NCBI GenBank assembly: GCA_005776735.1
Contig: SXOM01000024.1
Coordinates: 1-36,990, forward strand
Direction: 5' to 3'
Length of the DNA: 36,990 nt
Origin: Pseudomonadota bacterium
Lineage (GTDB): Bacteria; Myxococcota_A; UBA796; SXON01
Part shown: positions 9,715 to 34,166 of the stretch, piece by piece
Layout of the letters: each line of letters opens with the position of its first letter
Position numbering within the stretch: the stretch's first letter is position 1
Notes under the pieces: generated by a model
Told to the model about the DNA's origin: nothing
Database searches by the model: none
The model's input: only the letters and a program-made list of their open reading frames with translations
Position numbers and translations under genes: made by a program

Positions 9715-10173
9715 CACCCCTTCCAGCCAGGCCGCCACGGAGTTCCCGGACAGGTCGGTCACCGTGGCGGTGACGCGCGCGTTGCGGCCGTCGAGGTCCT
9801 CGAGCTCGAACCCATCGAAGCGCTGGTGCAGGTCGCTCCCCACCCAACGGCCGGCGTTGTCGCCGACGTTGGCGCACACCAGGCGCAGCTCGTAGGTGGT
9901 GTCGCCGAGCACGAGGTCCTCGTCGAGGTCGTACGCCTCCAGGCGGACGCTGGCGCCGTCGCCCAGCCCCTCCAGGCCGCCGACCCCGACCCGGTAGGGC
10001 GAGTAGGGCGACCCCCCTTGGGGCGGCCTGCCGTACGGGAGCGCGTCGCCGTCCACGAAGTCGTCCGCGCCGGCGGGCACGATCGTCGCCTCGTCCGCGC
10101 CCACCGCCTCACACGGCGTGGGCGCGGGGCCCGCAGCGCAGCCCCACCAGAGCAGGCCGAGCACCCTAGGCAC
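9700..10173 (-). CDS. small lipoprotein-like protein, paralogous to the product of 32300..32782
   Basis: ORF 9700..10173. Leader MPRVLGLLWWGC (atypical lipobox). Shares the order Cys..Cys / G.QGG..Y / ..VTD..G.. with the 32300 protein. Overlaps the upstream DUF2330 stop by 8 nt. Confidence 0.6.
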   Translation of the reverse strand: MPRVLGLLWWGCAAGPAPTPCEAVGADEATIVPAGADDFVDGDALPYGRPPQGGSPYSPYRVGVGGLEGLGDGASVRLEAYDLDEDLVLGDTTYELRLVCANVGDNAGRWVGSDLHQRFDGFELEDLDGRNARVTATVTDLSGNSVAAWLEGVLTPM

Positions 10174-11713
10174 GGCGCCGGCGTGCGGCGGCGGCCAGGA
10201 CCAGCACCGCGGGGGCCAGGAGCGCAGAAGCTTCTCCCGAGCACCCGGCGTTGAACGCGTCGGCGTCGGCCTGGACGTCGTGTTCGAACAACACCTCGCC
10301 CTCGCCGGACGCGCTGAGGTCGGTGATGCGCACCGCCGCGGGCGTGCCGAGCTCCTCTCGGACCGCGGTCACGTCCTCGCCGCCGTCGGGCACCACGATC
10401 TCGCGACCGTCGCCGAGGATCAGCGTGCGCGAGACCACGTTGCCGCTGAACGCGTTGGTGCGCTCCTGGCTGGTGGCGGACCGGGTCGCGAGCACCGTCT
10501 GCTCCACGGCGTCGTTGAACACGAACACCGGGTCGGCGGTCATCTCGGCGGGGTCCATCGTCGTGAACAGCCGCGTGCCCCACGCGGCGCCGTCGATTCG
10601 TGCCTGCTGTTCGGCCATGACCTCGAGGATCTCGGTCTCGAACCGGTCGGTGGCGACGACCGCGTCCCAGTCCTCGACCTCGACCTCGTAGCAGCCCGGA
10701 CACTGCAAGAACGTGGCCCCGTCGACCCCGTCCGGCGGCGGCACGAGCTCCAAGAGCAGGTTGGTGAGCTGGGTGCTGCCCGGCATGCCCGAGTACACGA
10801 TGGTCTCGAGCCAGGACACCGGGTCGGCCTCGCGCAGGGCGTCGGGGGAGAACCGGTCGGTCCAGTCGAGGAGGCCCGAGAAGTCGGTGGCAGGCCCCGC
10901 GTAGTCAGTGGCGAACGCCAGACCGCCGGCCTCGTCGACCGCGGCGGACACGACCTCGCGGTAGTTGTCGGCGCCTTCGTACCAGTTGATCGCCGCTTCG
11001 TTGATGTCGACGTGCAGGTAGTTGTCGGGGACGGCGCGCGAGGGACCGAAGACGAAGACCTCGATCGGCATGTCGGCCACCGCCGCCACCGCCGTGAGCT
11101 GGATGGGGATGCTGGCGGCCTCGGCCGCGTAGGACATCACGATCGGGGCGATGTCGCCGGCGTCCTTGTCGCTGAGGAGCTTGAGCGCCACGAAGTACTG
11201 GCCCGCGGCGACGTAGGGTTGCAGCACCGCGTCGAGCCCGTCGGGCAGGCTGTAGCCGTTGTCCTCGAGCCAGATCACCAGGACGTCGGCGTTCTCGGCC
11301 TGCAGCACCACGCTCAGGTACGGACCGACCGCCTCCTCGGACACGACGGTGACGCCACCACCGTCCTCGCGGGGCGCCATGTCGGCCGACATTGCCATCT
11401 CGGCGGCGCACCCGATGCTGCCGGGCCGGTCGACCCCGAGCTGGAACACCGGGGTGGTCTGGTTGGCGAGGGTCGTGAACATCGCGTCGTTGGACACCTC
11501 GACCGTGGGCTCGCCCGGCACCGGCACCACCCACGCGAACTCGTCCGCTTCGCCTTCGAAGGCAATCTGGACCTCGGTGGTGACCCGCCCCTGGTCGTAG
11601 AAGAAGAAGATCCGCTCCGCCGCCTGATCGACCGGCTGGATGGCGTTGCAGAACATGCCCCCGCACGCAGCGGCGGGGTCGGACGCGAAGAGGACGAGGT
11701 GGAGGAAGGTCAT
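10166..11713 (-). CDS. DUF2330-family protein with a MYXO-CTERM-type C-terminal sorting tail (paralogue A)
   Basis: ATG 11713 inside ORF 10166..11746, with GGAG upstream. MTFLHLVLFASDPAAACGGMFC... carries the N-terminal CGG(M/F)F hallmark I associate with DUF2330. The C-terminus is NAGCSGEASALLAPAVLVLAAAARRRRA (Gly-Cys, hydrophobic span, Arg cluster). Confidence 0.8.
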   Translation of the reverse strand: MTFLHLVLFASDPAAACGGMFCNAIQPVDQAAERIFFFYDQGRVTTEVQIAFEGEADEFAWVVPVPGEPTVEVSNDAMFTTLANQTTPVFQLGVDRPGSIGCAAEMAMSADMAPREDGGGVTVVSEEAVGPYLSVVLQAENADVLVIWLEDNGYSLPDGLDAVLQPYVAAGQYFVALKLLSDKDAGDIAPIVMSYAAEAASIPIQLTAVAAVADMPIEVFVFGPSRAVPDNYLHVDINEAAINWYEGADNYREVVSAAVDEAGGLAFATDYAGPATDFSGLLDWTDRFSPDALREADPVSWLETIVYSGMPGSTQLTNLLLELVPPPDGVDGATFLQCPGCYEVEVEDWDAVVATDRFETEILEVMAEQQARIDGAAWGTRLFTTMDPAEMTADPVFVFNDAVEQTVLATRSATSQERTNAFSGNVVSRTLILGDGREIVVPDGGEDVTAVREELGTPAAVRITDLSASGEGEVLFEHDVQADADAFNAGCSGEASALLAPAVLVLAAAARRRRA

Positions 11714-11830
11714 GGTGCGCTCCGAACGAAGGTGTACCCCGGACACCCGAGCAAAGGCGGGGCCAACCGCGAAAAGTATGTTCAGACCGACATGACCACA
11801 CCGCGCGCGCCCACGATCACGACACGGACG

Positions 11831-13393
11831 TCACCGACGCCGTCGCCGCAAGAGCCCGGCCCCGAGCACCACCCACGGCGCCACAAGTCCGGCCGATTCG
11901 TCACACCCGTTGTTGAACGCCGTCACCTCGGCGGCGGCCGCGTCGCGGTGATCGAACACCACCTCGCCCAGCCCGTTGGCCCCCATGTCCACGATGCGGA
12001 TGGCGGCGGGGGTGCCGAGGCGCTCCCGCGCCGCCGCCGAGTCGTCGAGGCCGTCGAGCACGATCTGGCGGCCGTCGGCCAGCGAGAGGGTGCGCCGCGT
12101 GTTCTGGCTGGCAAACAGGTTCTCGCGCTCGGTGCTTGTCGCGGCGTGCACCGCGCTGACGTCGGCAGGCACGTCGCCGTTGAGCACGAAGACCGGGTCG
12201 GCGGTCATCTCCCCCGGGTCCATCGTCGTGAACAGGCGGGTGGCGTAGTCGCTCCGATCGATGCGCTCCTGCTGGGCGCGGTGCACCGCCAACAACTCCT
12301 CGTCCACGCGGGCGGCGGCGGCCGCGGGGTCCCACCCCTCCACCTCGACCGTGTAGCAGCTCGGGCACGAGAGGAACTCGGCGGTCCCCACCCCCTCCGG
12401 CGGCGGCACGAGCTCCACCAGCAGCGCGTCGCCCTGGGTGCTTCGTGGCAGGCCCCCGTACAGCACCGCCTCGAGGAACGCGACGGGATCGAGCGTGGCG
12501 AGATGGTCCTCGTCGACCCAGCCTTCGTCGTAGACCACGAAGGTGAAGTCGGACGACGGGGCGGCCCAGTCGGTCACGAACGCGAGGCCGCCGGCCTCGT
12601 CGACGGCCGCGCTGACGACCTCCCGGTAGTTGTCGGCCCCTTCGTACCAGTTGAACGCCGCCTCGTTGAGCTCGACGGACAGGTAGTTGTCCGGCACCGC
12701 GCGCGCTTCGCCGAACACGAAGACCTCGATCGGCATGTCGTCGACCGCGGCCACCGCCGTGAGCTGGATGGGGATGCTCGCCGCGGAGGCGGCGTACGTC
12801 ATCGCGATCGGCGCGATGTCACCGGCGTCCTTGTCGCTCTGCAGCTTGAGCGCGACGAAGTACTGCTGGCTGGCGACGTACGGCTCCAGCGTGGCGTCGA
12901 GCCCGTCGGGGAGGTCGTAGCCGTTGTCCTGGAGCCATCCGACGAGCACCTGGGCGTCGGTGGCCAACAGGACGACCATGTCGTACGGGCCGACCGCTTC
13001 GCGCGACACGACGCTGATCGCACCGCCGTCGTCGTAGGAGTTCGCGGAGGCCGTGTCCTTGCTGAAGTCCGCTGGTGCTGCGAACAGACACCCGCCCGAC
13101 GCCCCGCGGTCGACGGTGAGCTGCAGCGTCGGCGTGGTCTGGTTGGCCACGAGCGTGAACATCGCGTCGTTGGAGAGTGTGACCGTGGGCTCGCCCGGCA
13201 CGGGAACGACCCACGCGAACTCGTCGCTCTCGCCCTCGTAGGTGATCTGCACCTCGGTCGTGACCCGCCCCTCGTGCACGAAGAAGAAGATGCGCTCCGC
13301 CGCCTGGTCGACCGGCGCGACCGCGTCGCAGAACATCCCCCCGCAGGCGACGGCCGCGGGTGCTCCCGCGAGGATCATCATCGAGAACAGCAT
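11831..13393 (-). CDS. DUF2330-family protein with a MYXO-CTERM-type tail (paralogue B)
   Basis: ORF 11831..13393 (ATG). MLFSMMILAGAPAAVACGGMFCDAVAPVDQAAERIFFF... is collinear with paralogue A. The C-terminus is NNGCDESAGLVAPWVVLGAGLLRRRRR. Confidence 0.8.
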   Translation of the reverse strand: MLFSMMILAGAPAAVACGGMFCDAVAPVDQAAERIFFFVHEGRVTTEVQITYEGESDEFAWVVPVPGEPTVTLSNDAMFTLVANQTTPTLQLTVDRGASGGCLFAAPADFSKDTASANSYDDGGAISVVSREAVGPYDMVVLLATDAQVLVGWLQDNGYDLPDGLDATLEPYVASQQYFVALKLQSDKDAGDIAPIAMTYAASAASIPIQLTAVAAVDDMPIEVFVFGEARAVPDNYLSVELNEAAFNWYEGADNYREVVSAAVDEAGGLAFVTDWAAPSSDFTFVVYDEGWVDEDHLATLDPVAFLEAVLYGGLPRSTQGDALLVELVPPPEGVGTAEFLSCPSCYTVEVEGWDPAAAAARVDEELLAVHRAQQERIDRSDYATRLFTTMDPGEMTADPVFVLNGDVPADVSAVHAATSTERENLFASQNTRRTLSLADGRQIVLDGLDDSAAARERLGTPAAIRIVDMGANGLGEVVFDHRDAAAAEVTAFNNGCDESAGLVAPWVVLGAGLLRRRRR

Positions 13394-13453
13394 GGAAACG
13401 CCCCTGCGGGCAGTGTAGCATCGGATTCGCCGGGCACGACGCGGCGCCCCGGG

Positions 13454-13497
13454 CCGAACCGCGAGGGGCTTGCTGCACCGGCTCAGGTCGGTGAGCG
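13454..13497 (-). repeat. solitary copy of the 44-nt module shared with the large repeat elements
   Basis: CCGAACCGCGAGGGGCTTGCTGCACCGGCTCAGGTCGGTGAGCG matches, with few mismatches, the complement of 18449-18492 and 33963-34007. The strand given is the one inferred for the RNA-like polarity of the family. Confidence 0.6.
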
Positions 13498-13517
13498 AGG
13501 CGGCGTCACACGGGTCG

Positions 13518-18348: not shown

Positions 18349-18425
18349 GGTCCCCGCCGCTAACGTCGTGGGCGCCGCGCCGCGACCGTCCGCGTCGAGC
18401 GGCCGACCGTCCGCGCGGCGCAACA

Positions 18426-18727
18426 CCTCTCGAAGTTCGGCGTTGCCGCGCTCACCGACCTGAGCCGGTGCAGCAAGTCCCGCGCGGTTCGGCGTCCCCG
18501 TTGTGCCAGCCGCCGCCGCCGTCGTGCGGTTCGGTGACGCGGCGGGTGACGGGTCGGGTGGAATTGGCCGAGCGGAGCACAGGTTCGCTTGCGAACCTGT
18601 GGCGGAGCGAGCGCCAATTTCACCCGGCCCGGCAGGACCCGGGGGTGACTTCGTCCTGCAAACGCTCGTCGGAGAACGAGGCCCCGAGAGACGCCGACCC
18701 GCGCCCCGGGGCGCCGCGTCCTGCCCG
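18426..18727 (+). repeat. copy A of a ~300-nt GC-rich dispersed element; candidate structured RNA (polarity + here)
   Basis: Aligns by eye over its whole length with the reverse complement of 33722-34027. It has nested hairpins at 18555-18568/18613-18626, 18579-18587/18592-18600 and 18632-18638/18653-18659. It fills the divergent intergenic region between the genes starting at 18348 (-) and 18766 (+). Confidence 0.65.
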
Positions 18728-18765
18728 GCGCGCCGGCGCGCCCCCCGCCGCGCTACCTTCGCGGG

Positions 18766-20175
18766 GTGAAGGCCCGCCACCCGCTCGACCCGACGCCGCC
18801 GAAGCTGCTCTACCTGCTCGCGCTCATGTGGCACATGGCGTGGGCCGCCACCGTCCCCTCCCCCAGCGACTGGGACCCCGCCTACTACTTGTCGGTCGCA
18901 CGCCACATCGCGGCCGGGCACGGCGCCGTCTCCGACGCGGTCTGGAACCTCGGGTGGCTCCCGGACTCCCTCCGCCACCCGGCCGACCTGCACTGGATGC
19001 CGCTCCCGAGCCGCGTGCTCGTCCCGTTCGTGGCGCTCGCGGCGGACGACTGGGCCGCCGCACAGCTCGCCGCCGTGCTCCTCGCCGCCGGCTGGGCACC
19101 GCTGGCGTGGGCGTGGGCCGAACGCCTGGAGGCGCCCCTGCCCGCCCGCTGGGTCGCGGGAGCGTTGGGCGCCCTGGCCGGCGGCTACGTCCGCACCATC
19201 ACCACCCCCGATTCCATCGCGCTCTACGGCCTCCTGGGCGGCGCCGCGCTCCTCGCCGCCTCCCGCCGCTCGGCGGCCGCGCTGCCGCTGGTCGCGCTGG
19301 TCGCGCTGACCCGCGGCGACGGCTTCCTGCTCGGACTGGCGTGTGCGCTCGCCTGGCCGCGCCCACGCGAAGCGCTCACCATCGCGAGCGCCGGCATCTT
19401 CGCGACGTTGGCGTGGTACCTGCGCGGCTGGCTGCTCGCCGGTGAAGGGTGGCTCGCGCTCCGCGAGCGCGCCGCGACGAGCACCTCGCTCGGGCAGGTC
19501 CTGTCGGTGGCGCCGGTCCCGGCGCCGAGCTGGGTCGAACGCGGGCAGTTCCTCGTGGGCGAAGTGCCGACCATCCTCACGGTGGCGCTCATCGTCGGCG
19601 GGGGCGTGCTCGTGTGGCCGGCGGCGTGGGCGCTGGTGCAGCGCCGCGGCGACCGCGGCCTGTGGCCGGTCGCCGCCTACGCGGTCGGCTTCCCGGTGGT
19701 GATCCACCTGCTCGCCCCGGCCATCGCCGCGGAAGGCTCGGTCTACCGCAGCGGGGCGGCGCTCTTCACGCCGCTGGCGGCGCTGGCGGCGGTGGGCGCC
19801 GCCACCGTGACGCGGCGGTACCACCCGGCCTTCCTGCCGGGGCTGCTGCTCGCCGCCGCGCTCGTGTCGGGGGTGCTCATCGGGCGCCAGTACCAGCGTG
19901 TGCTCACCCAGCTCGGCGCCGACTGCGACGCGCTCGCGGAGGTACCGGCGGGCGCGGCGGTGCTGTCGTACGACCCGATCGGGGTCGAAGCCCGCTGCGG
20001 CCACCCGGGCGTGATCATGGCGCGCGGGGCCCCGCTCGACGGGCTCGTGGAGCGGTACCACCTTCAGTGGGCGCTGGTGGCGCCCCCCGACTACGACAAC
20101 GGCACGGTGCGGGCCCAGGACTGGACCCTGGCGGGCTGGGAGCCGGTCAACGACCGCGTGTACCGCCGCCGCTGA
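18766..20175 (+). CDS. GT-C fold polytopic membrane glycosyltransferase (ArnT/PMT-like)
   Basis: ORF 18766..20175 (GTG). Many TM helices. The first-loop motif ...PSPSDWDPAYYLSVARHIAAGHG... is typical of the GT39/GT83-like families. The C-terminal soluble domain is not recognised. Confidence 0.55.
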   Translation: MKARHPLDPTPPKLLYLLALMWHMAWAATVPSPSDWDPAYYLSVARHIAAGHGAVSDAVWNLGWLPDSLRHPADLHWMPLPSRVLVPFVALAADDWAAAQLAAVLLAAGWAPLAWAWAERLEAPLPARWVAGALGALAGGYVRTITTPDSIALYGLLGGAALLAASRRSAAALPLVALVALTRGDGFLLGLACALAWPRPREALTIASAGIFATLAWYLRGWLLAGEGWLALRERAATSTSLGQVLSVAPVPAPSWVERGQFLVGEVPTILTVALIVGGGVLVWPAAWALVQRRGDRGLWPVAAYAVGFPVVIHLLAPAIAAEGSVYRSGAALFTPLAALAAVGAATVTRRYHPAFLPGLLLAAALVSGVLIGRQYQRVLTQLGADCDALAEVPAGAAVLSYDPIGVEARCGHPGVIMARGAPLDGLVERYHLQWALVAPPDYDNGTVRAQDWTLAGWEPVNDRVYRRR

Positions 20176-20201
20176 GGCGCCGTCGACCCGCGCGCGCGGC
20201 G

Positions 20202-20230
20202 CCGTCCCGCCTCGGCGCGCTTCGGGACGG
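20202..20230. terminator. hairpin between convergent genes
   Basis: CCGTCCCG - 13 nt - CGGGACGG between the stop at 20175 (+) and the stop at 20260 (-). No T-tract. Confidence 0.3.
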
Positions 20231-20259
20231 GCCGCAGGCGCCGCCCGGTCCGGTGGCCT

Positions 20260-27965: not shown

Positions 27966-30334
27966 GCCGCGCCGGCCTGCTCCTGGCCCTGGCCGCCTGC
28001 GACAGCGAGGTGGTGCCCGACGGACACGGCGCGATCGCCGAGGGCGTGATGGGGGTGCTCGGCGAGCCGATGCCGTCCGCCACGGCCACGCAGTTGGCCA
28101 CATTCGAGCGTGGCAAGGAGGTCGCCACCCGCCGGTTCGACAGCTCGACCGGGCTCGGCCCCGGGTTCAACGTCGCGTTCTGCGCGAGCTGCCACGAGAA
28201 GCCGACCCCCGGGGGCTCGGCCGGCCTGTACCGCAACTTCTTCCTCGCCGGGCGCGAGCTCGACGACGGCAGCTTCTTCTTCGGCACGTCGGCGGGGAAC
28301 GGGTCGGGGGTCGTGCGCATGAACTACCAGGGGCCGCTCTACGATGCGCGCCCCGATCTCCCCGACACCGACAACGTCATCGCGCAGCGCAACGGCATCC
28401 CCATCTATGGGATGGGCCTGTTGGCCGAGCTCGACGACGAGGAGATCCTGAGCCGGGCCGACCCCGACGACGCCGACGGCGACGGCATCTCCGGGCGCGC
28501 CAACTACGACCGCGGGTTCGTGGGGCGCTTCGGGATGAAGGCGCAGACCGCATCGATCGAGGCGTTCATCCGCGGCCCGCTCAACAACCACGCCGGCGTG
28601 ACCACCGACCCCCTGAGCGAAGCCCAACGCGCCGAGCTGCCCATCGACTCGAGCCGCCCCACGGCGGTCGGGCGGTGGATGCCCCCGGGCCGCCCGCGCT
28701 GGGTGGTGCCCGACCCCTTCGCCGGCCTCGGCCACGTCGCGCAGGCCGCCGCCCCCGACGGCCCGCTGGTCGACACCGACGACATCCCCGACCCCGAGCT
28801 CTCCACCGCCGACCTCTTCGACCTCGTCAGCTTCGCGATGCTGCTCGCGGTGCCCGAGATCGAGGAGCCCGCGGGGGACGCCCTCCGCGGCCGGGACGCC
28901 TTCGACGAGGTGGGCTGTGGCGGGTGCCACACGCCCCGCCTGGACGGGCCGCGCGGCCCGGTGCCGGTGTACTCCGACCTGCTGCTGCACAACATGGGCG
29001 CCGACCTCGAGGACGGGATCGTGATGGGGTTCGCCGACGCCGACGAGTTCCGCACCATGCCGCTCTGGGGCGTGGCCGCCTCGGGCCCCTACCTGCACGA
29101 CGGGCGCGCCCCCAGCCTGCACGACGCCATCGTGCTCCACGGCGGCGAGGCCACGGCGTCCCGCGACGCCTACACGGCGCTCTCCCCCGCCGCACAGGCC
29201 GAGCTGATCGAGTTCCTCCGCTCGCTGGGCGGGCGCAGCCAGACCTCGACGGGCATGTTGCCCCCCGACGCTGTGGTGCCCGCGGTGGGGGAGTGGGGCG
29301 GGCCGCTGGCCGAGCTCAGCGAGGCGGACACGCTCACGTTCGCCGCCGCACGCGAACGGTTCGACCACGAGTTCTCGCTCGACGAAGGCGTCGGCAACCC
29401 GCGCTACAACGGAGACTCCTGCCGGGCCTGCCACTTCGACCCGGTGATCGGCGGCTCGGGGCCGCGCGATCTGAACGTGATGCGGCACGGGATCGTCGCC
29501 GGCGACGCCTTCATCGTGCCCACGCTCGGCACGACGGTGCTGCACCGCGAGCTCGCGCTGCGCGACGTCGGCATCGACGCCCAGGCCGAGATCAACGTGT
29601 ACGAGTCCCGCAACAGCCCCCCGCTCTTCGGCCTCGGCCTCGTCGAGGCCGTCCCCGACACGACGATCGAAGCGCTGGCCGACCCGGATGACACCGTGAC
29701 CCCCGACGGGATCACCGGGCGCGTGGGCCGGGTCGACGGCGGCCGCCTCGGCCGCTTCGGCTGGAAGGCCGACGTCCCCACCCTGGACGAGTTCGTGCGC
29801 GACGCCGTCGGCACCGAGCTCGGCATGACCCTCCCCTACCAGGAGGGGCTGAGTTTCGGGCGTCTCTACGACAACGACGACGTCGCCGACCCCGAGCTCA
29901 CCGACGTCGACAGCGCGTTCCTCGCGCACTTCATCCGAACCCTGGGCCCGCCGCCGCGCCCGCCCGGGGTCGACGAAGCGGCCGAAGCGCGCGGTGAGGC
30001 CGGCTTCATCGAGGTCGGCTGCGCCCTCTGCCACGTGCCCGTGCTCGAGAGCGACCTCGGCCCGGTGCCGCTCTACAGCGATCTCCTCCTGCACGAGCTG
30101 CTCGACGAAGGCGCCGTGGGCATCGAGTCGGGCAGCGCCTCGATGACCGAGTTCCGCACGCCGCCGCTGTGGGGCATCGCCGAGACCGGGCCCTACTTCC
30201 ACGACGGGGCGAGCGAGACCCTCGCCGACGCGATCGACCGCCACGCCGGCGAAGCAACCGCCTCTCGCGACGCGTGGCGCCTGCTCGACGCCGACGCCCA
30301 GGCCGACCTCCTCACCTTCCTGGAGTCGCGATGA
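27962..30334 (+). CDS. lipoprotein made of two tandem DUF1111 (di-haem, CCP/MauG-like oxidoreductase) modules; four CxxCH sites
   Basis: GTG 27962 in ORF 26963..30334 (GTGA overlap). Lipobox LAAC. Module 1 carries GLGPGFNVAFCASCH, GRFGMKAQ, GCGGCHTP, YSDLLLHNMG and FRTMPLWG..GPYLHDG..HGGEA. Module 2 carries the same order: SCRACH, GRFGWKAD, GCALCHVP, YSDLLLHELL and FRTPPLWG..GPYFHDG..HAGEA. Confidence 0.8.
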   Translation: MSRAGLLLALAACDSEVVPDGHGAIAEGVMGVLGEPMPSATATQLATFERGKEVATRRFDSSTGLGPGFNVAFCASCHEKPTPGGSAGLYRNFFLAGRELDDGSFFFGTSAGNGSGVVRMNYQGPLYDARPDLPDTDNVIAQRNGIPIYGMGLLAELDDEEILSRADPDDADGDGISGRANYDRGFVGRFGMKAQTASIEAFIRGPLNNHAGVTTDPLSEAQRAELPIDSSRPTAVGRWMPPGRPRWVVPDPFAGLGHVAQAAAPDGPLVDTDDIPDPELSTADLFDLVSFAMLLAVPEIEEPAGDALRGRDAFDEVGCGGCHTPRLDGPRGPVPVYSDLLLHNMGADLEDGIVMGFADADEFRTMPLWGVAASGPYLHDGRAPSLHDAIVLHGGEATASRDAYTALSPAAQAELIEFLRSLGGRSQTSTGMLPPDAVVPAVGEWGGPLAELSEADTLTFAAARERFDHEFSLDEGVGNPRYNGDSCRACHFDPVIGGSGPRDLNVMRHGIVAGDAFIVPTLGTTVLHRELALRDVGIDAQAEINVYESRNSPPLFGLGLVEAVPDTTIEALADPDDTVTPDGITGRVGRVDGGRLGRFGWKADVPTLDEFVRDAVGTELGMTLPYQEGLSFGRLYDNDDVADPELTDVDSAFLAHFIRTLGPPPRPPGVDEAAEARGEAGFIEVGCALCHVPVLESDLGPVPLYSDLLLHELLDEGAVGIESGSASMTEFRTPPLWGIAETGPYFHDGASETLADAIDRHAGEATASRDAWRLLDADAQADLLTFLESR

Positions 30335-32782: not shown

Positions 32783-32794
32783 CCCACCCCTCGG

Positions 32795-32890
32795 GGCGCC
32801 GCGACGCGACCGTCCCGAAGGCGGCAACCTCGCCCCGCGGCGCGCGGCGCCGGGCGGCCCCGGCCGCCTTCGGGACGGTCGCGCGGCGCC
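32795..32890 (+). terminator. long imperfect inverted repeat (about 28 bp of stem, 3-nt bulge, 37-nt loop) just after the operon
   Basis: The left arm is GGCGCCGCGACGCGACCGTCCCGAAGGCGGC (32795-32825). The right arm is GCCGCCTTCGGGACGGTCGCGCGGCGCC (32863-32890). It starts 13 nt after the stop at 32782. No T-tract. Confidence 0.45.
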
Positions 32891-32926
32891 GCCCACAAGC
32901 CCGGGATTCGGTGCTATCCTCGGCAG

Positions 32927-33706: not shown

Positions 33707-33721
33707 ACTTCGAGCGGGGCC

Positions 33722-34027
33722 GGGCAAGACGCGGCGACCCGGGGCGCGGGTCGGCGTCCTCGGGTGGGGGCAGACGCACGGCGCGACGTTCTGCAGAACG
33801 AAGTCACCGCCGGGTCCTGCCGGGCCGGGCGAAATTGGCGCTCGCTCCGCCGCGGATTCGCAAGCGAACCCGCGCTACGCTCGGCCAATTCCACCCGACC
33901 CGTCACCCGCCGCGTCACCGAACCGGCCAACGCGGGGAGGCGTCTGGCACAACGGGGGGACGCCGAACCGCGAGGGTCTGGCTGCACCGGCCCAAGGTCG
34001 GTGGGCGTGGTGATGTCGAACTTCGAG
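33722..34027 (-). repeat. copy B of the ~300-nt dispersed element; candidate structured RNA (polarity - here)
   Basis: Reverse-complement match to 18426-18727. The equivalent hairpins are at 33826-33839/33884-33897, 33852-33860/33865-33873 and 33793-33799/33814-33820. It lies between two convergent genes. Confidence 0.65.
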
Positions 34028-34056
34028 CAGTATTTTGGTGAGCGTGGCGACGGCGG
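33980..34056. repeat. direct repeat unit 1 (77 nt), the distal end of copy B
   Basis: GGCTGCACCGGCCCAAGGTCGGTGGGCGTGGTGATGTCGAACTTCGAGCAGTATTTTGGTGAGCGTGGCGACGGCGG. Confidence 0.7.
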
Positions 34057-34092
34057 TGAACCGGCCGACGGCGGGGATGCGACAGGAGGGGG

Positions 34093-34166
34093 GGCTGCAC
34101 CGGCCCAAGGTCGGTGGGCGTGGTGATGTCGAACTTCGAGCGGTTTGGTGAGCGTGGCGACGGCGG
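34093..34166. repeat. direct repeat unit 2 (74 nt), a near-identical duplicate of 33980-34056
   Basis: Same sequence as unit 1 except GAGCGGTTTGG in place of GAGCAGTATTTTGG. A 36-nt spacer separates the units. It ends 13 nt before the stop codon (34180-34182) of the minus-strand FG-GAP gene. Confidence 0.7.

Follow-up and report, generated by a model that had tools for sequence, protein, structure and literature searches.

The described systems that come closest to the element considered here are the REP, BIME and REPIN sequences mobilised by RAYT, an HUH Y1 transposase; structured repeats resembling miniature inverted-repeat transposable elements (MITEs); the IS200/IS605-derived PATEs with the omega-RNA scaffolds of TnpB; and the bridge RNAs of IS110-family insertion sequences (ISs). 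The element lies in a 36,990-nt stretch of DNA (the window; contig SXOM01000024.1 of assembly GCA_005776735.1, positions 1–36,990; 73.6% G+C) from an uncultured Myxococcota-like bacterium, where the original prediction had described it as a dispersed, GC-rich candidate structured RNA present in two mutually inverted copies, here called A and B. On balance, we favour assigning it to a young, lineage-restricted family of interspersed repeats that are foldback-type, non-autonomous and comparable to MITEs or REPINs. The family is previously undescribed and high-copy, and it carries a caution for comparative work, in that clean compensatory changes between two copies can arise from a selfish repeat and not only from a regulatory RNA.

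Relation to described repeat families

Like the element, REP, BIME and REPIN sequences are intergenic, lie mostly at gene 3' ends and also between convergent genes, are palindromic and hairpin-forming, combine into mosaic or tandem modules, and lack terminal inverted repeats and target duplications. They are also favoured targets of IS110-family elements, the reported cases being IS621, ISPpu9 and ISPpu10. The difference is one of scale: a REP unit is an imperfect palindrome of ~20–40 nt and a REPIN consists of two inverted REPs spanning ~100 nt, whereas the element measures 265–370 nt and adopts a multi-helix closed fold. Identity with REPs was rejected on unit length, which is too great by a factor of ten.

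Structured MITE-like repeats (ERIC, Correia/NEMIS, pneumococcal BOX/RUP, Bacillus bcr1 and the stem-loop families of PMC2267715) share with the element that they are short, non-coding, multi-copy and polymorphic for presence or absence at their sites. They are also co-transcribed with their neighbours, and stable RNA folds are predicted for them, in some cases accompanied by compensatory changes. The present element is larger and combines a near-invariant core with a hypervariable segment. A classical MITE derived from a DDE transposase was rejected, as neither terminal inverted repeats nor a target-site duplication was found.

PATEs and omega-RNA scaffolds resemble the element in a biology that is strand-specific and single-stranded, in having neither inverted terminal repeats nor a duplication, and in a structured segment of 150–250 nt that terminates at the 3' boundary of the element; here, a subterminal hairpin (GACGCCGACCC..GGGTCGCCGCGTC) lies ~10 nt from the sharp 3' end. 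Unlike in PATEs, no tnpA or tnpB lies nearby, and no omega-RNA or HEARO-type family of Rfam matches; a conserved 4–5-nt target motif beside the 5' end could not be defined, because the boundary varies there. More generally, Rfam 15 gave no match at the gathering threshold for the window or for 12 other copy-bearing loci, and for copy A the E-value threshold returned hits at chance level only (E >= 2.3), which agrees with the earlier impression that this is not a known RNA family. The element varies in presence between relatives, sits in unrelated contexts, has modular and deleted derivatives, is restricted to a young clade and prefers gene 3' ends, a combination that places it among the bacterial non-autonomous interspersed stem-loop repeats.

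Insertion polymorphism and family distribution

Copy A lies in a 417-nt divergent spacer bounded by the starts of an ABC-2 permease gene (18348) and of a gene for a 469-aa membrane protein (18766), an arrangement first proposed from open reading frames (ORFs) and matched by the ENA gene calls (ERZ27257034 k141_911911). Clear orthologues of the 469-aa gene, at 64–80% identity, were found in uncultured relatives only, and the relatives of window proteins carry labels of Myxococcales, Deltaproteobacteria or Myxococcota metagenome-assembled genomes. In relatives whose 469-aa orthologues reach 80%, 74% and 73% identity, the spacer measures 86, 35 and 94 nt, respectively, and the element is not present in it (L033, L029 and L034 compared). 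Synteny at this site is shared, with genes for a DUF4340 protein, an ABC-auxiliary protein and the ABC-2 permease on one strand and the 469-aa gene on the other. At the copy B site, the adjoining 259-aa gene has an orthologue at 86% identity (L045), behind which the convergent spacer measures 15 nt and lacks the element; behind the orthologue at 95% identity (L048), the element is present and oriented as in the window. Because these syntenic sites are empty in relatives, both window copies are recent insertions and not conserved leaders.

The original prediction had seen in copy A a candidate structured RNA that would form a 5' leader before the downstream gene. A riboswitch-like, cis-regulatory leader of the 469-aa gene would account for a strongly structured element that ends 36 nt before the GTG start, but five relatives carry the orthologue without the element, behind spacers of 35–94 nt, a conserved GCTACCTT box stands between the element and the start codon, and the majority of other copies face gene 3' ends. 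The position is thus not conserved upstream of orthologues (73–80% identity), and we give this explanation, already refuted by the empty orthologous sites, next to no credence. The absence of copy A from the syntenic spacers of relatives, together with the varied contexts of the family, leads us to replace the RNA gene or gene-linked leader by a structured mobile intergenic repeat family.

Further copies were collected by a metagenome scan anchored on two core blocks, a pattern that fixes 27 core positions. The scan returned 15 further loci (L006–L020, nearly all from one metagenome), all of them true members and many at contig ends, and one more copy (L043), whose ENA sample is the same as that of the window, was reached through a protein look-up. 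The flanks of all these copies are different. With many contigs breaking off within a copy, the family fragments metagenome assemblies.

The copies occupy convergent, divergent (copy A and L013) and co-directional (L009 and a core-less mini copy in the window) spacers, and about three-quarters of the element sides with a readable neighbouring gene abut a gene 3' end, usually 0–20 nt from the stop codon. The genes downstream of copies are mutually unrelated. As had been stated from the ORFs, no transposase or reverse transcriptase was found among the window genes, by Pfam or in the ENA calls. A retron non-coding RNA was rejected, given a window with no reverse transcriptase and unrelated downstream genes.

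A scan of 185,579 species-representative genomes with an invariant 20-mer found no copy; its eight matches were all due to chance, and the 30-nt match in Micromonospora extends no further. Plasmid and phage scans gave no copy, nor did scans of viral contigs, in which the four matches to the 18-mer GGTGGAATTGGCCGAGCG were chance occurrences within coding DNA. Among relatives, no copy was found in ~190 kb searched with nhmmer (L029–L042) or in ~240 kb, including L045–L051, searched with a covariance model of the core. The lack of copies in relatives indicates a family that is young and restricted to a narrow clade.

Extent and modular make-up of the copies

The recurrence of the element, with copy B inverted relative to copy A, was confirmed, but its extent had to be revised: the empty sites of relatives place copy A at ~18375–18729 and not at 18426–18727. 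Searching the window with copy B by blastn gave 85.3% identity over 313 nt (E = 3e-86; match 18429–18729), and a repeat search resolved the inverted arms of A and B into stretches of 141 nt (18520–18660/33792–33932, 91%), 40 nt (18690–18729/33719–33758, 95%) and 39 nt (18461–18499/33956–33994, 90%).

Across the family, the unit is ~340–370 nt long and its structured body ~265–285 nt. The 3' end is sharp, at ..CGCCGCGTCTTGCCCGGC (also cited as ..GCGTCTTGCCCGGCC), and typically falls 7–20 nt from the stop codon of the convergent gene; in copy A it is equally sharp, at ..GCGTCCTGCCCGGC, and the 5' limit is approximate. On the 5' side lies a module of ~75–130 nt, composed of a near-palindrome (TCGAAGTTCGA) and a local hairpin (CACCG..CGGTG), which is also found alone and at times in tandem. 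Derivatives that have lost the central hairpin by internal deletion and kept the ends occur at least three times (window, L016 and L006). Coding potential was rejected because indel lengths do not come in multiples of three and substitutions show no three-base periodicity.

A conserved fold with strand polarity

RNAalifold was applied to an alignment of 13 full copies of the main family and returned a closed fold common to all of them, in which the long-range helices P1–P3 (~28 bp) unite the two ends and enclose the core hairpin (P6–P8) and smaller hairpins (Table 1). Paired cells amount to 98.6% of this alignment, and seven pairs, in P1, P2, P3, P5 and stem 2, show compensatory double changes. 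For each of five measures, none of 500 column shuffles reached the observed value, and sliding the 3' partners by 1–3 columns lowered pairing to 36–47%. Two further observations fit a fold that is kept as sequence changes: in L014, a 3+3-nt insertion lengthens stem 2 on both arms, and a second subfamily (L006 and L014) has unrelated arm sequences that still pair, as a 260-nt rod with the same tip. The core hairpin itself contains two fixed G-U pairs and two small internal loops (2–3 nt) able to form tandem G-A pairs.

Three stems had been proposed from copy A. Stem 1 (18555–18568/18613–18626) is present with its 14 bp, one of them G-U, and extends to ~19–23 bp; stem 2 (18579–18587/18592–18600) is present with its CUUG loop. 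Stem 3 (18632–18638/18653–18659) reads as proposed in copy A, but the family keeps only its P9 part, the GCA/UGC extension being found in ~4 of 13 copies. The reported differences between copies A and B were also recovered, namely two A-U to G-C double changes in stem 2 (ACAGG/CCTGT vs GCGGG/TCCGC) and, in each of the three stems, one change from a Watson–Crick pair to G-U.

On the sense strand, G-U occurs in 16 pair columns (104 cells) and A-C in none, over 83 pairs x 13 sequences, and all 16 unpaired cells are transversion mismatches. The helices that are strand-neutral, being defined by Watson–Crick pairs on either strand (P1–P3, P6 and P8), hold at least six G-U columns and no A-C column. 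Transitions in unpaired columns are evenly split (24 pyrimidine vs 24 purine), so strand-biased mutation is not the cause of the asymmetry between G-U and A-C. Consensus folding energy for the structured unit is -121.9 kcal/mol for the sense and -105.3 kcal/mol for the antisense strand, 11 of the 13 copies fold better in the sense direction, and single-sequence z-scores are -3.3/-3.1 for sense against -1.4/-1.0 for antisense.

A plain DNA palindrome or foldback repeat under no strand-specific selection could account for part of this pattern, if its arms were kept alike as double-stranded DNA, by paired protein-binding sites or by arm-to-arm gene conversion, and if the G-U excess were due to chance or to prediction on one strand. 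The fold was indeed predicted on the sense strand, which favours G-U, and Watson–Crick compensations fit DNA and RNA alike; moreover, subfamily 2 folds well, and nearly equally, on both strands (z = -4.5 vs -3.2), and the antisense strand still keeps 40–50 bits with the covariance model. We nevertheless consider this explanation quite improbable, in view of the 104 G-U cells set against zero A-C, the same imbalance within the strand-neutral helices, the equal frequency of G>A and C>T in unpaired columns, and the formation of P4 and P9 on the sense strand only. Of the earlier proposal that selection acts on an RNA fold of defined polarity, the conserved fold and the importance of one strand are thus retained; the assignment to RNA is not, the strand being compatible with either RNA or single-stranded DNA. 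The data support both the conserved fold and its polarity, though at modest statistical depth.

The hexamer GGTGAC is found three times per copy (window 18533–18550 and 18643–18650), twice at the base of the core hairpin, 12 nt apart, and once in the P9 loop. Subfamily 2 likewise has three, at partly different positions. The hexamer may be a protein-binding motif. The hypervariable segment was considered as a guide to nearby DNA and rejected, no 11-mer match being found beyond the segment itself. It was also considered as an intrinsic terminator and rejected, its T run being part of the stem and the consensus scan finding no terminator.

A possible route of propagation

As the family is young and selfish, its fold and polarity are most simply explained by selection on propagation through a single-stranded intermediate; strand-asymmetric conservation without inverted ends or target duplications points to such an intermediate and to a mobilising enzyme. 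Only copies with a properly folding sense strand would then be copied. The intermediate of the sense strand could be single-stranded DNA, as in HUH-type peel-and-paste elements, or a transcript, and its recognition would fall to an enzyme whose gene lies elsewhere in the genome, with the invariant hairpin and the repeated GGTGAC motifs as the likely recognition sites. Once inserted, copies would be passively co-transcribed in 3' untranslated regions, where they may act as terminators or as stabilisers against 3' exonuclease. In a variant that we consider unlikely, the sense fold would be a functional RNA carried by the mobile element, a new type of mobile structured non-coding RNA that might serve as scaffold or guide to an enzyme from another locus or as template in RNA-mediated copying, with the invariant 35-bp hairpin as protein-binding core and the hypervariable hairpin as specificity segment.

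Several observations weigh against a mobile repeat. No autonomous partner was found: among the metagenome loci collected, none has both ends split by an ORF, except for an IS110-family insertion that has its own ends, and tblastn with RayT and IS608 TnpA queries, a weak test, detected no Y1/RAYT match in ~440 kb. Target-site duplication is not above background, the longest word shared by the flanks averaging 7.5 nt within a copy and 7.3 nt between different copies. The outer ends carry no terminal inverted repeats, and the sole inverted match (GGCCGG(T)GCA / TGCCCGGCC) connects the internal P1 arms and runs from inside the element to its 3' end. At the 5' side the boundary is ill-defined, falling anywhere from 3 to ~60 nt upstream of GCTCGAAG. 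Independent substitution events are few, and the invariance of the core is partly a matter of ascertainment because the collecting pattern fixed 27 of its positions. Lastly, the core is much more conserved than the flanks while one internal segment is hypervariable, and a simple neutral burst predicts otherwise; this contrast could indicate an RNA function at the level of the host. A 13-nt sequence beside copy B (CCGCTCGAAGTTC) had been considered as a target duplication and was rejected, being a fragment of the adjoining 5' module.

The main rival takes up such a host function and holds that the repeat is a multi-copy structured RNA that is functional or domesticated, either a terminator or stabiliser in 3' untranslated regions or a set of small RNA genes, the fold of which is kept for the benefit of the cell while mobility is mere spread. 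We regard this as possible, if clearly second in probability. It would explain the strand-specific G-U pattern and the better sense folding, a near-invariant core common to two subfamilies with unrelated arms, a CUUG tetraloop together with small internal loops suited to tandem G-A pairs, convergent spacers that the element occupies entirely between the two stop codons, where no other terminator is seen, and the retention of the orthologous copy B in the 95% relative. It sits poorly with a consensus scan that finds neither a sigma-70-like promoter nor an intrinsic terminator in copy A or copy B, with a -10-like AAAATA box in the 5' module that around half of the copies have lost, with the persistence of core-less derivatives and with the lack of a matching Rfam family. 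Moreover, because the family is absent from relatives at <= 86% protein identity, no conserved host function can depend on it.

The repeat as a target of an IS110-family element

The repeat contains one fixed insertion site for an IS110-family element, between GGCAG and GACCC (copy A 18632–18641; more fully, between ..CCCGGCAG and GACCCGG..), directly 3' of the long GC-rich hairpin. In L016, L043 and L044, the repeat is broken after ..CCCGGCCCGGCAG and gives way to DNA of lower G+C, in which, 85 nt on, an IS110-family DEDD recombinase gene begins (PF01548, E = 2.9e-9); the opposite junction is found on a fourth contig (Table 1). Subterminal inverted repeats (ATGAGGTGGCCG) are present in the IS, which is bordered by AG on either side and is lower in G+C than the host. 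The AG flanks are the complement of the CT core of IS621. The right end of the IS has no Rfam match.

All other copies are continuous across GGCAGGACCC, which identifies the repeat as a target of the IS and not a part of it. A reading in which the repeat forms both ends of the IS was rejected on this ground and in view of the subterminal inverted repeats, the lower G+C and the precise junction. The repeat is thus a specific target of this element, in the way that REPs are for IS621, ISPpu9 and ISPpu10. A site beside a hairpin offers a case from nature of the 'target plus stem-loop' logic put forward of late for bridge recombinases.

An accessory role within the IS110 system deserves mention, as the bridge RNA and the solo ssr9 modules of ISPpu9 are likewise structured non-coding modules of a few hundred nucleotides that occur both beside an IS110-family recombinase gene and alone. 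The repeat would then be a solo, bridge-RNA-like module of an IS110/IS1111 element, mobilised in trans by the recombinase; its core lies 85 nt from the recombinase gene in L016 and L043, and ISPpu9 has been reported to circularise its small-RNA module alone (bioRxiv 10.1101/2025.01.17.633520). Such a role is very unlikely, and identity with a bridge RNA was rejected: the ends of the IS are its own and lie within the repeat, the remaining copies are unbroken, the internal loops of the hairpin (2–3 nt) are too small for guides when compared with the 8–10-nt guide loops of bridge RNAs, and the insertion sites of the repeat itself have no common sequence.

In L043 (10290–10437) and L044 (380–528), the recombinase ORF is broken after ~100 codons by DNA that opens with a tandem GGAAAGTCTGGCGGGT repeat and carries, on the opposite strand, the beginning of another ORF. 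A second mobile element thus seems to be nested in the first.

Feature coordinates and neighbouring sequences

Table 1. Positions and basis of the copies, helices and insertion-sequence junctions (window coordinates unless a locus is named)
Feature	Position	Strand	Basis or remark
Copy A, whole inserted element (5' module and structured unit)	18375..18729	+	Empty sites in L033, L029, L034; family alignment; nhmmer
Copy A, 5' module, degenerate	18395..18463	+	Has CTCGAAGTTCGGC (TCGAAnTTCGA near-palindrome in most copies) and local hairpin CACCGACC..CGGTG competing with P1
Copy A, 5' arms of P1, P2, P3	18464..18496 (P1 18464-18474; P2 18477-18481; P3 18483-18496)	+	RNAalifold; compensatory changes, columns 75/359, 88/342, 89/341, 106/321
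Copy A, P4/P5	18498..18545	+	G-U-rich helix CCGUUGUG/CGCGGCGG around weak hairpin; viable on + strand only
Copy A, P6-P8 core hairpin	18547..18634	+	Extended stem 1 and stem 2 with CUUG loop; ~35 bp, irregular; near-invariant family-wide
Copy A, P9	18635..18656	+	GGAC..GG / CY..GUYY; sole family-kept part of stem 3
Copy A, hypervariable segment	18657..18689	+	Different short hairpin in each copy
Copy A, 3' arms of P3, P2, P1	18690..18729 (P3 18690-18703; P2 18708-18712; P1 18716-18729)	+	RNAalifold; sharp 3' end of element
P1 pairing			GCCGGUGCAGC with GC..UGCCCGGC; links 5' side of body to very 3' end
P2 pairing			GACCC / GGGUC; long-range
P3 pairing			CGCGG.UCGGCGUC / GACGCCGA.CCGCG; long-range
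Copy B, full element, spacer between convergent genes	33719..34057	-	Repeat search, blastn; 3' end 13 nt from stop of + gene ending 33706
Solo 5' module, tandem partial copy just upstream of copy B	34094..34166	-	Repeat match 98%, blastn, nhmmer; starts ~14 nt past FG-GAP gene stop (34180)
Core-less mini copy, part of 5' module with P1 and P2 fused directly to 3' end	13429..13511	-	Repeat match 94%, blastn, nhmmer; spacer between two co-directional genes
IS110-family junctions in repeat	L016:12022-12393; L043:9925-10437; L044:1-528		Three contigs, identical site
Opposite (right-end) IS junction, ..CGGCCACCTCATAGA joined to AGGACCCGG..	L013:7954-8084	-	Fourth contig

Among the neighbouring genes, the ABC-2 permease and FG-GAP labels given earlier were borne out by Pfam. 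The 'GT-C' label of the 469-aa protein (18766–20175) was not, as the protein has zero Pfam matches even at E <= 5. Just before the GTG start of its gene, the conserved GCTACCTT box (-10-like, TAnnnT) is found at 18746–18765 in the window and within L033:4240–4272 and L029:9600–9630. In the window the box lies downstream of the insert, so that the repeat parts it from its former upstream sequence.

The core-less mini copy stands immediately upstream of the second of two tandem DUF2330 paralogues (10166–13393), which form direct repeats with a spacing of 1665 nt and 70–82% identity. In L008, a bacterial RNase P RNA class A gene (2496–2932, 235 bits) precedes the repeat and its tandem 5' modules by ~360 nt and shares their orientation.

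Another GC-rich palindrome (..CCGTCCCGAAGGCGGC...GCCGCCTTCGGGACGG..), a repeat unrelated to the first, occurs in the window at 32794–32894 and 20192–20246 and at L012:376–389. The copy at 32794–32894 has 32-nt arms that are 91% complementary, and both window copies directly follow stop codons. Finally, the coding region of a di-haem oxidoreductase (DHOR) contains direct repeats ~1100 nt apart (28771–30208, 79–84% identity), which suggests a tandem duplication of a domain or a gene.

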